64,000 nt of DNA. Origin: Escherichia phage RB32. The notes below the pieces were generated by a model. It was not told the origin of the DNA, did not search any database, and saw only the letters and a program-made list of their open reading frames with translations. Where the stretch lies: the sequence record NC_008515.1; one strand, given 5' to 3'. This document shows positions 44,357-46,471 of this stretch, piece after piece. The stretch's first letter is position 1. Each line of letters opens with the position of its first letter. The position numbers were made by a program, and so were the translations under genes.

Positions 44357-45217
44357 TTACACCGCCATCTTTCCTTTAATAGAAGGGTGTGATTCATAGT
44401 TGTTAAGAACAAAATTATGCGGCTTTACGAATTGACTCAACCAAAATACCTGCGATTCTGTGTCCCATTCATCAAATTCATCTGGAAATTTTAATTGCAA
44501 TTCGCATAAATCCATAGGTTCACGACGTAAAATTTCTTTACATTGTTCTACGTGATTCATATAGATATGAGTATTACCACCGGAAAATATCAAATCTCCC
44601 GGAATAAGATTACACATCTTAGCTACAATATGAACTAACGTAGCATATGATGCAATGTTGAATGGCAAGCCCAAGAACACGTCAACACTTCTTTGATACC
44701 ACTGTAAATCCAAATAGCCATTACGCACATTAAATTGATAGAACATATGACAAGGCGGTAATGCCATATATTTAAGTTCAGCTGGATTCCACGCAGAAAC
44801 AATTTGTCGCCTATCATTCGGCAGTTTTTTAATACGATCAATAACTTCTACAATTTGGTCTACACCGCCAAAATCACGCCATTGTTTTCCATAAATTGGA
44901 CCAAGTTCACCGCTATGGTATCCTAAATCTTTTGCTTGATTTTCGTAATTTTCATCCCAGACTGTTTTGCCTTGAATTAATGAATCATGCTGAATTAATC
45001 GTAAATCATTGACATTTGTGCTTCCTGATAAAAACCATATTAACTCAGCAATGCAAGCTTTCCAGGCGAGCTTTTTAGTTGTTACTGCAGGAAAACCTTT
45101 GGTTAAATCCCAACGCAATTTAGTACCGAACAAAGCAATTGTTCCTGTGCCTGTTCGGTCATCAGTTTCGTAGCCATTTTCAAAAATGTCTTTAATTAAA
45201 TCTTGGTATTGTTTCAT
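44357..45217 (-). CDS. td: Thymidylate synthase (uninterrupted, no intron)
   Basis: Single 286-aa ORF, same as spliced T4 Td; active-site region LPPCH present. Confidence 0.95.
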   Translation of the reverse strand: MKQYQDLIKDIFENGYETDDRTGTGTIALFGTKLRWDLTKGFPAVTTKKLAWKACIAELIWFLSGSTNVNDLRLIQHDSLIQGKTVWDENYENQAKDLGYHSGELGPIYGKQWRDFGGVDQIVEVIDRIKKLPNDRRQIVSAWNPAELKYMALPPCHMFYQFNVRNGYLDLQWYQRSVDVFLGLPFNIASYATLVHIVAKMCNLIPGDLIFSGGNTHIYMNHVEQCKEILRREPMDLCELQLKFPDEFDEWDTESQVFWLSQFVKPHNFVLNNYESHPSIKGKMAV

Positions 45218-45262
45218 TTAGTACCTTATATAAATTATAATACATTTTATGAAGCTAAATAA

Positions 45263-45610
45263 TCAATACGGTTTAGCATCAAATTTTCTCTCAATTTCAG
45301 GCGTGAAATATAATTCTTTACCGCGTTTGGAAAAGCGACCAATAATATGATAATTATTCTCATCAAACGTGATATTACCAATATCCATAGCTTTCAACCA
45401 AATATCGATATTTCTATCCAGCTTTATGTCAAAATTCCAATACGGAAAACTATTACCGAAAATACTGCAAGCGGATTCAGTGCAACAACTGCTATAAATC
45501 TTGTCTTTAGGAACTACTAATTGATAGACACCTTTAATAAACTGAGGACCCTGCCATTTTGGTTGTTTCGCGTCTTTTTCTAATAGAATAGGGTAATAAT
45601 TAAAGTTCAT
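45263..45610 (-). CDS. Hypothetical protein between frd and td, with no T4 counterpart at this position
   Basis: ORF track starts at GTG 45622; first ATG at 45610 gives 115 aa; no motif recognised. Confidence 0.55.
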   Translation of the reverse strand: MNFNYYPILLEKDAKQPKWQGPQFIKGVYQLVVPKDKIYSSCCTESACSIFGNSFPYWNFDIKLDRNIDIWLKAMDIGNITFDENNYHIIGRFSKRGKELYFTPEIERKFDAKPY

Positions 45611-45630
45611 ATTTTCCGGCACGCGTTATT

Positions 45631-46471
<841 letters not shown>

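Follow-up and report, generated by a model that had tools for sequence, protein, structure and literature searches.

The frd-td junction and its gene model

The window, i.e., the whole stretch of 64,000 nucleotides analyzed here, carries on its minus strand the genes frd and td with a small ORF between them, in a region that is 100% identical to Enterobacteria phage RB33 (KM607001.1). The upstream operon partner, frd (45631..46215, minus), encodes dihydrofolate reductase (DHFR), and the downstream partner, td (44357..45217, minus), encodes a thymidylate synthase (TS) of 286 aa and is uninterrupted by an intron. The gap between them measures 413 nt (45218..45630) rather than the 414 bp given in an earlier note on this DNA. 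It holds an ORF of 115 aa plus stop codon (45263..45610, minus), with its ATG at 45610 and its stop at 45263, which is a member of the RB32ORF229c family (PHROG 1928). The GenBank CDS RB33_230 (“hypothetical protein”) corresponds to the ORF from this ATG with 100% identity. A mechanical ORF call extends the frame to a GTG (45263..45622, minus, 119 aa). In phages bov9_1 and KarlGJung, the spacer between frd and the ORF is 1 nt shorter and the GTG at 45622 is gone or out of frame. Hence, the ATG at 45610 is the conserved start.

The spacer of 20 nt between the frd stop and the ORF ATG (AATAACGCGTGCCGGAAAAT, 45611..45630, minus) contains a weak GGA Shine-Dalgarno-like element. The spacer of 45 nt between the ORF stop and the td ATG (45218..45262, minus) is near-identical across all seven Tequatroviruses compared and provides an AAGG ribosome-binding site for td. 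It also includes a candidate middle promoter upstream of td, the MotA-box-like AGCTTCA-N12-TAATTT (45232-45255, minus), which resembles the MotA-dependent middle promoters of T4 and may function as one; the window has 14 matches to GCTTYA-N11-13-TANNNT, with 6.7 expected. This element is missing from the T4-type phages, in which frd and td overlap directly. The scan of the region for sigma-70 promoters and terminators was uninformative, and no structured RNA was found in it, Rfam giving one sub-threshold chance match. A six-frame HMM search detected no paralogue of the ORF elsewhere in the 64-kb window.

Coding capacity and selection

The ORF is a genuine protein-coding gene, as the earlier note had supposed. 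Besides its identity to an annotated CDS, it matched the PHROG 1928 HMM with an E-value of 7.5e-35, residues 4-111 being aligned to profile positions 2-125 of 126, and its dN/dS ratio is low. Selection was estimated by the Nei-Gojobori method in seven Tequatroviruses (RB33, T2, T6, RB18, ECO78, bov9_1, and KarlGJung). The ORF gave dN/dS values of 0.00-0.22, mostly below 0.05, at dS values of 0.05-0.36, while frd in the same seven phages gave dN/dS values of 0.03-0.29 at dS values of 0.13-0.37. The ORF protein also varies less than DHFR among these members of Tequatrovirus. The gene is thus under strong purifying selection and, for an uncharacterized T-even ORF, its conservation is unusually high. 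A recent sweep was rejected as the origin of the high nucleotide identity of the ORF, since dN is very low whereas dS is ordinary; this identity is due to constraint on the amino-acid sequence.

Distribution and synteny in T4-like phages

The ORF protein used as a tblastn query was found in 578 phage records, in one copy each, with about 361 Tequatrovirus records at more than 90% identity and 217 records of other genera at less than 60% identity. The Tequatrovirus carriers include T2, T6, RB14, RB32, RB51, AR1, and wV7. Of 569 Tequatrovirus-type records, about 354 have the ORF at the frd-td junction, as counted by a coverage of 80% or more of a 1.1-kb query. Nine or more further T4-like genera have a diverged homologue, with 27-46% identity, in this slot. 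In every one of the distant cases inspected for their gene order, the homologue comes directly after the DHFR gene and before the thymidylate synthase gene; these cases are Kanagawavirus Q7622, Jiaodavirus ValerieMcCarty04, a Marfavirus-like Klebsiella phage, Roskildevirus FBB1, Kagamiyamavirus EcS1, metagenomic T4-like contigs, and the weakest member of the family (E = 6.5e-4), in Providencia phage PSTRCR_127 (Gualtarvirus). A diverged homologue also fills the slot in Winklervirus. Such a recurrent position is at odds with the description, in the earlier note, of an extra gene inserted at the junction.

In the other genera, the homologue mostly begins within the end of frd, with an overlap of 1-20 nt, whereas at a few loci one to about 130 nt separate the two genes. 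The td of most genera has no leader, its start overlapping the ORF before it. Identity to RB33 between genera ranges from 27 to 46% for the ORF, from 32 to 53% for DHFR, and from 31 to 78% for TS, a pattern that fits vertical descent of the ORF with its neighbors. Judging from this synteny, the gene family is an old resident of an frd-X-td operon.

In most other genera, the slot is filled by a tandem pair of paralogues, one of a short form similar to that of RB33 and one of a long form. The latter, present in Karamvirus, Gelderlandvirus, Kanagawavirus, Marfavirus, and others (e.g., Q7622 gp197 and EcS1 ORF254), belongs to the same family (HMM E-values of 1e-15 to 1e-28) and shares with the ORF both the frd-td slot and a hairpin bearing a G-R-F-x-K-x-G motif, but it differs by about 20 inserted aa (PTIxxYxxNP) that follow the conserved Trp. 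Tequatrovirus lacks the long form and kept the short form alone. A distant long-form member (P0036; L009:4001-4420, Logan SRR22022328 contig) was found in a terminal position on a T4-like contig, adjoining NMN-transporter and NadR-like genes. It has no frd upstream and its downstream side is cut off; it is the sole context observed that departs from the frd-X-td rule.

Junction alleles and probable loss of the gene in T4

Three alleles of the frd/td junction coexist within Tequatrovirus, namely the 115-aa ORF, the direct overlap of T4 type (T4, F1, and HY03), and another ORF of 68 aa, and the boundaries of all three are exactly the frd stop and the td ATG. The T4 GT7 junction reads GTATATAAATGAAACAATACC, where the frd stop TGA overlaps the td ATG (ATGA overlap). 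This confirms the arrangement given for T4 in the earlier note. The junction of phage F1 is identical and that of HY03 is also a direct overlap. The 68-aa ORF (MSNKLKVKDVPNAMALFICRQMHQGPMTP...; L007:1818-2024 in phage fFiEco06, and L004:3148-3354), carried by about 135 Tequatrovirus records, is unrelated to the 115-aa ORF. With the ORF that stands third in this slot in Klebsiella Marfavirus-like phages it shares 79% identity, and with a gene of Phapecoctavirus phages 43%, which suggests a more promiscuous movement than that of the 115-aa gene.

In RB33, a 9-bp direct repeat, TAAATGAAA, brackets the cassette, with an upstream copy at the end of frd (45629..45637, minus) and a downstream copy at the start of td (45212..45220, minus), 417 bp from the first. 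Removing 417 bp from RB33, i.e., one copy of the repeat and the interval, gives the T4 junction and reproduces its ATGA overlap exactly. T4 and its closest relatives would thus have lost the gene, most simply by a 417-bp deletion between the repeats. Because TAAATGAAA is frequent at gene junctions, with 11 copies where 3.7 would be expected, this deletion route is plausible but not proven. With homologues in the slot across most T-even relatives and in other genera, T4 is the outlier, and the deep synteny together with the repeat-flanked cassette makes loss the most economical polarity. The gene was therefore most likely lost in the T4 lineage and not gained in RB33. The earlier note had held that finding the same ORF in T4 and in most T-even relatives would speak against an insertion: most relatives do carry it, whereas T4 itself does not. 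Its observation of the ORF was correct, while the reverse polarity, a loss in T4, is the likelier one. T4 is hence unrepresentative at this junction, frd-X-td being the common and probably the ancestral arrangement. The gene is dispensable, since both the T4-type phages and those with the 68-aa allele live without it.

The td gene is interrupted by a group I intron with I-TevI in T6, KarlGJung, and fFiEco06, and the presence of this intron is independent of the junction allele. A mutual exclusivity between the ORF and the intron with I-TevI was rejected, T6 and KarlGJung having both; in RB33, T2, and RB18, the ORF is present and the intron absent.

Sequence family and predicted structure

The RB33 protein had no match in Pfam, even at E ≤ 10, nor in NCBIfam or PADLOC, and it displays no GIY-YIG, HNH, or LAGLIDADG signature, in line with the earlier note. 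When 47 family members were compared with Pfam, no match and no nuclease family was obtained, and sequence and profile searches of the PDB yielded chance matches only (E ≥ 0.018). When 1.84 billion cluster representatives were searched exhaustively with an HMM, 42 proteins matched, one of them spuriously (the repeat protein P0040). The genuine family consists of 41 clusters at 50% identity and was found only in T4-like phages of Enterobacterales; hardly any further members came from a word-index search using the profile of 47 sequences. The proteins are mildly basic (median pI of 8.7), mostly of 95-140 aa, and single-domain, with two short fragments in addition. As all members are small and single-domain, without any fusion, domain partners give no functional hint, and every source name of the members found by the HMM search is “hypothetical.”

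The ORF is already catalogued, RB32ORF229c and PHROG 1928 (a conserved hypothetical protein of T4-like phages) being its own family without any difference, and hundreds of genomes have it among their annotated genes. RB32 and RB33 share the identical annotated protein, and in T6 and RB18 it bears an RB32ORF229c note. The sequence itself thus offers nothing new and would not surprise a T4 specialist. The literature search on the gene and its family found no paper.

The AlphaFold model, built from 47 sequences, is confident (pLDDT of 90.4, pTM of 0.83). It comprises strands at residues 6-12, 27-34, 38-40, 48-50, 62-64, and 80-82, a helix at 68-76, and a long hairpin at 86-104 that bears the G-R-F-x-K-x-G motif. 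Only W19, G91, K95, and G97 are invariant in the family, while Q16, G27, Y29, F93, and F102 are near-invariant, and the family alignment contains no conserved set of His, Cys, or acidic residues. Among the 60 best structural matches, none indicated a significant similarity to a solved protein. The structural neighbors, with weak scores, are OB folds and not nucleases; the closest known folds are OB-fold nucleic-acid-binding domains (S1, SSB/RPA, the RecO N-terminal domain, Teb1, Cdc13, and HIN). The predicted fold is best described as an OB-like compact beta-barrel with no significant structural relative. Nothing in the model suggests catalysis, and no catalytic motif is predicted.

Possible functions of the ORF protein

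The conserved gene belongs to one transcription unit with the DHFR and TS genes, mostly with overlapping start and stop codons and translational coupling. DHFR, the ORF protein, and thymidylate synthase would then be made from the same early/middle transcript. The ORF protein could act as a non-enzymatic binding module that assists the thymidylate/dNTP-synthesis module, e.g., by tethering or regulation, with the conserved Q16/W19/Y29/R92/F93/K95 as a candidate surface for binding nucleic acid or a partner protein. For a putative OB-type binding of ssDNA, RNA, or oligosaccharide, the conserved W19, Y29, R92, F93, and K95 and the median pI of 8.7 would be indirect hints. Its role would be helpful yet dispensable, since T4 does without the gene. 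A non-enzymatic binding protein co-expressed with the enzymes of thymidylate synthesis is therefore offered as our best guess, with low confidence. The explanation as a whole, that of a real and old frd-X-td operon gene lost by T4 and encoding an OB-like non-enzymatic binding module, is held tentatively, its chances being put at somewhat under even. A bolder version, which appears distinctly unlikely, is that the ORF protein and its long-form paralogue represent an unrecognized, widely conserved, non-catalytic partner of DHFR and/or TS with a new OB-like fold, linking thymidylate synthesis to DNA/RNA or to the dNTP-synthetase complex. If this were true, the model phage T4 would be the exception that hid the partner. 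Strong conservation, operon position, tandem paralogues, and an orphan fold make the gene a sensible experimental target for studies of phage nucleotide metabolism and of small early proteins.

Another explanation, raised in the earlier note, is a role in anti-defense or host takeover, in which a small early protein would neutralize a host immunity factor or redirect a host protein, the gene being kept or lost according to the hosts met. The polymorphism of the slot within Tequatrovirus (the ORF, the unrelated 68-aa ORF, or nothing), the dispensability of the gene in T4, its location in the early/middle region, and the small size of a phage-only protein that matches no characterized family all agree with such a role. 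However, in nine genera or more the gene keeps the same place in the operon, mostly with translational coupling to frd and td, and its very low dN/dS shows no sign of diversifying selection. Deep synteny, coupling, and low dN/dS are atypical of a fast-turnover accessory gene. In addition, neither the sequence searches of the PDB nor the 60 best structural matches gave a similarity to solved phage anti-defense proteins, and no experimental link was found in the literature search. This role is thus considered unlikely.

A special case of the binding-module idea is that of an RNA-binding translational coupler or regulator of td, where an S1/OB-like protein would bind the frd-td mRNA and tune TS synthesis. 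It would suit the S1 domains found among the OB-like matches, the mildly basic character of the protein, and the location of the gene immediately upstream of td, beside the conserved 45-nt leader. Yet no such leader exists in most genera, where td overlaps the preceding ORF, and the structural scores are weak, so that this special case is judged quite improbable.

It could also be supposed that the ORF is a free-standing homing endonuclease, or the remnant of one, which would cleave frd/td junctions lacking the ORF and propagate through gene conversion. The presence/absence polymorphism falls exactly at a junction beside td, a known homing hotspot (I-TevI intron), and homologues are labeled “putative homing endonuclease” in records of the BASEL collection and in Klebsiella phage ValerieMcCarty04. 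Nevertheless, no nuclease family was matched by any of the 47 members, the invariant residues are limited to W, G, K, and G without a conserved set of His, Asp, Glu, and Cys, and the structural neighbors are OB folds. The gene always lies at the same locus in one copy per genome, and its dS is comparable to that of the flanking frd, which leaves no signature of recent spread. The Seg (GIY-YIG) and Mob (HNH) endonucleases of T-even phages are similar to the ORF in occupying intergenic slots that are empty in some relatives, here near td, the target of I-TevI. The ORF protein, of 115 aa, is about half the size of these enzymes and, unlike them, has no catalytic motif, keeps a fixed position across genera, and bears no sign of spread. 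Membership of the homing-endonuclease families (GIY-YIG, HNH, LAGLIDADG, PD-(D/E)XK, and EDxHD) was rejected, no recognizable motif or domain being found, and the mobile, sporadic distribution expected of such enzymes was not observed for the ORF. A homing origin is thus largely refuted and very improbable.

As for the label, the BASEL methods state that introns and homing endonucleases were located through comparative genome alignment, and they give no motif-based ground for it. This label and others sit in MZ501046, MZ501066, MZ501067, MZ501089, MZ501113, OR271596, and other records. As it is without support, the “putative homing endonuclease” label, which is spreading in GenBank, should not be propagated. 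The labels “putative glucose-1-phosphate adenylyltransferase,” “reductase,” and “putative dihydrofolate reductase” on homologues are likewise erroneous, neither sequence nor predicted structure supporting them.

Finally, a spurious or decaying ORF without function, to which the viability of T4 without the ORF and with no known defect might point, is refuted by the selection analysis (dN/dS of about 0.03 across dS values up to 0.36), has full-length homologues across genera and a confident AlphaFold fold against it, and retains a negligible probability.

Possible mosaicism of the neighboring genes

The 5′ exon of td (44678-45217, 540 nt) falls into deeply divergent haplogroups in Tequatroviruses, with dS up to 1.06 and dN up to 0.08, whereas the ORF and frd (45263-46215) are far less divergent (dS ≤ 0.37). 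This points to recombination with a boundary close to the ORF/td junction and to mosaic td alleles, possibly related to co-conversion driven by I-TevI. On the other side of the ORF, the RB33 frd is 585 nt long, its counterparts in the other six phages of the comparison having 582 nt. The RB33 gene is also the most divergent of the seven, with 88-90% nucleotide identity and dN values of 0.06-0.08, while the adjacent ORF is 95-98% identical; the RB33 frd may have been exchanged by recombination.
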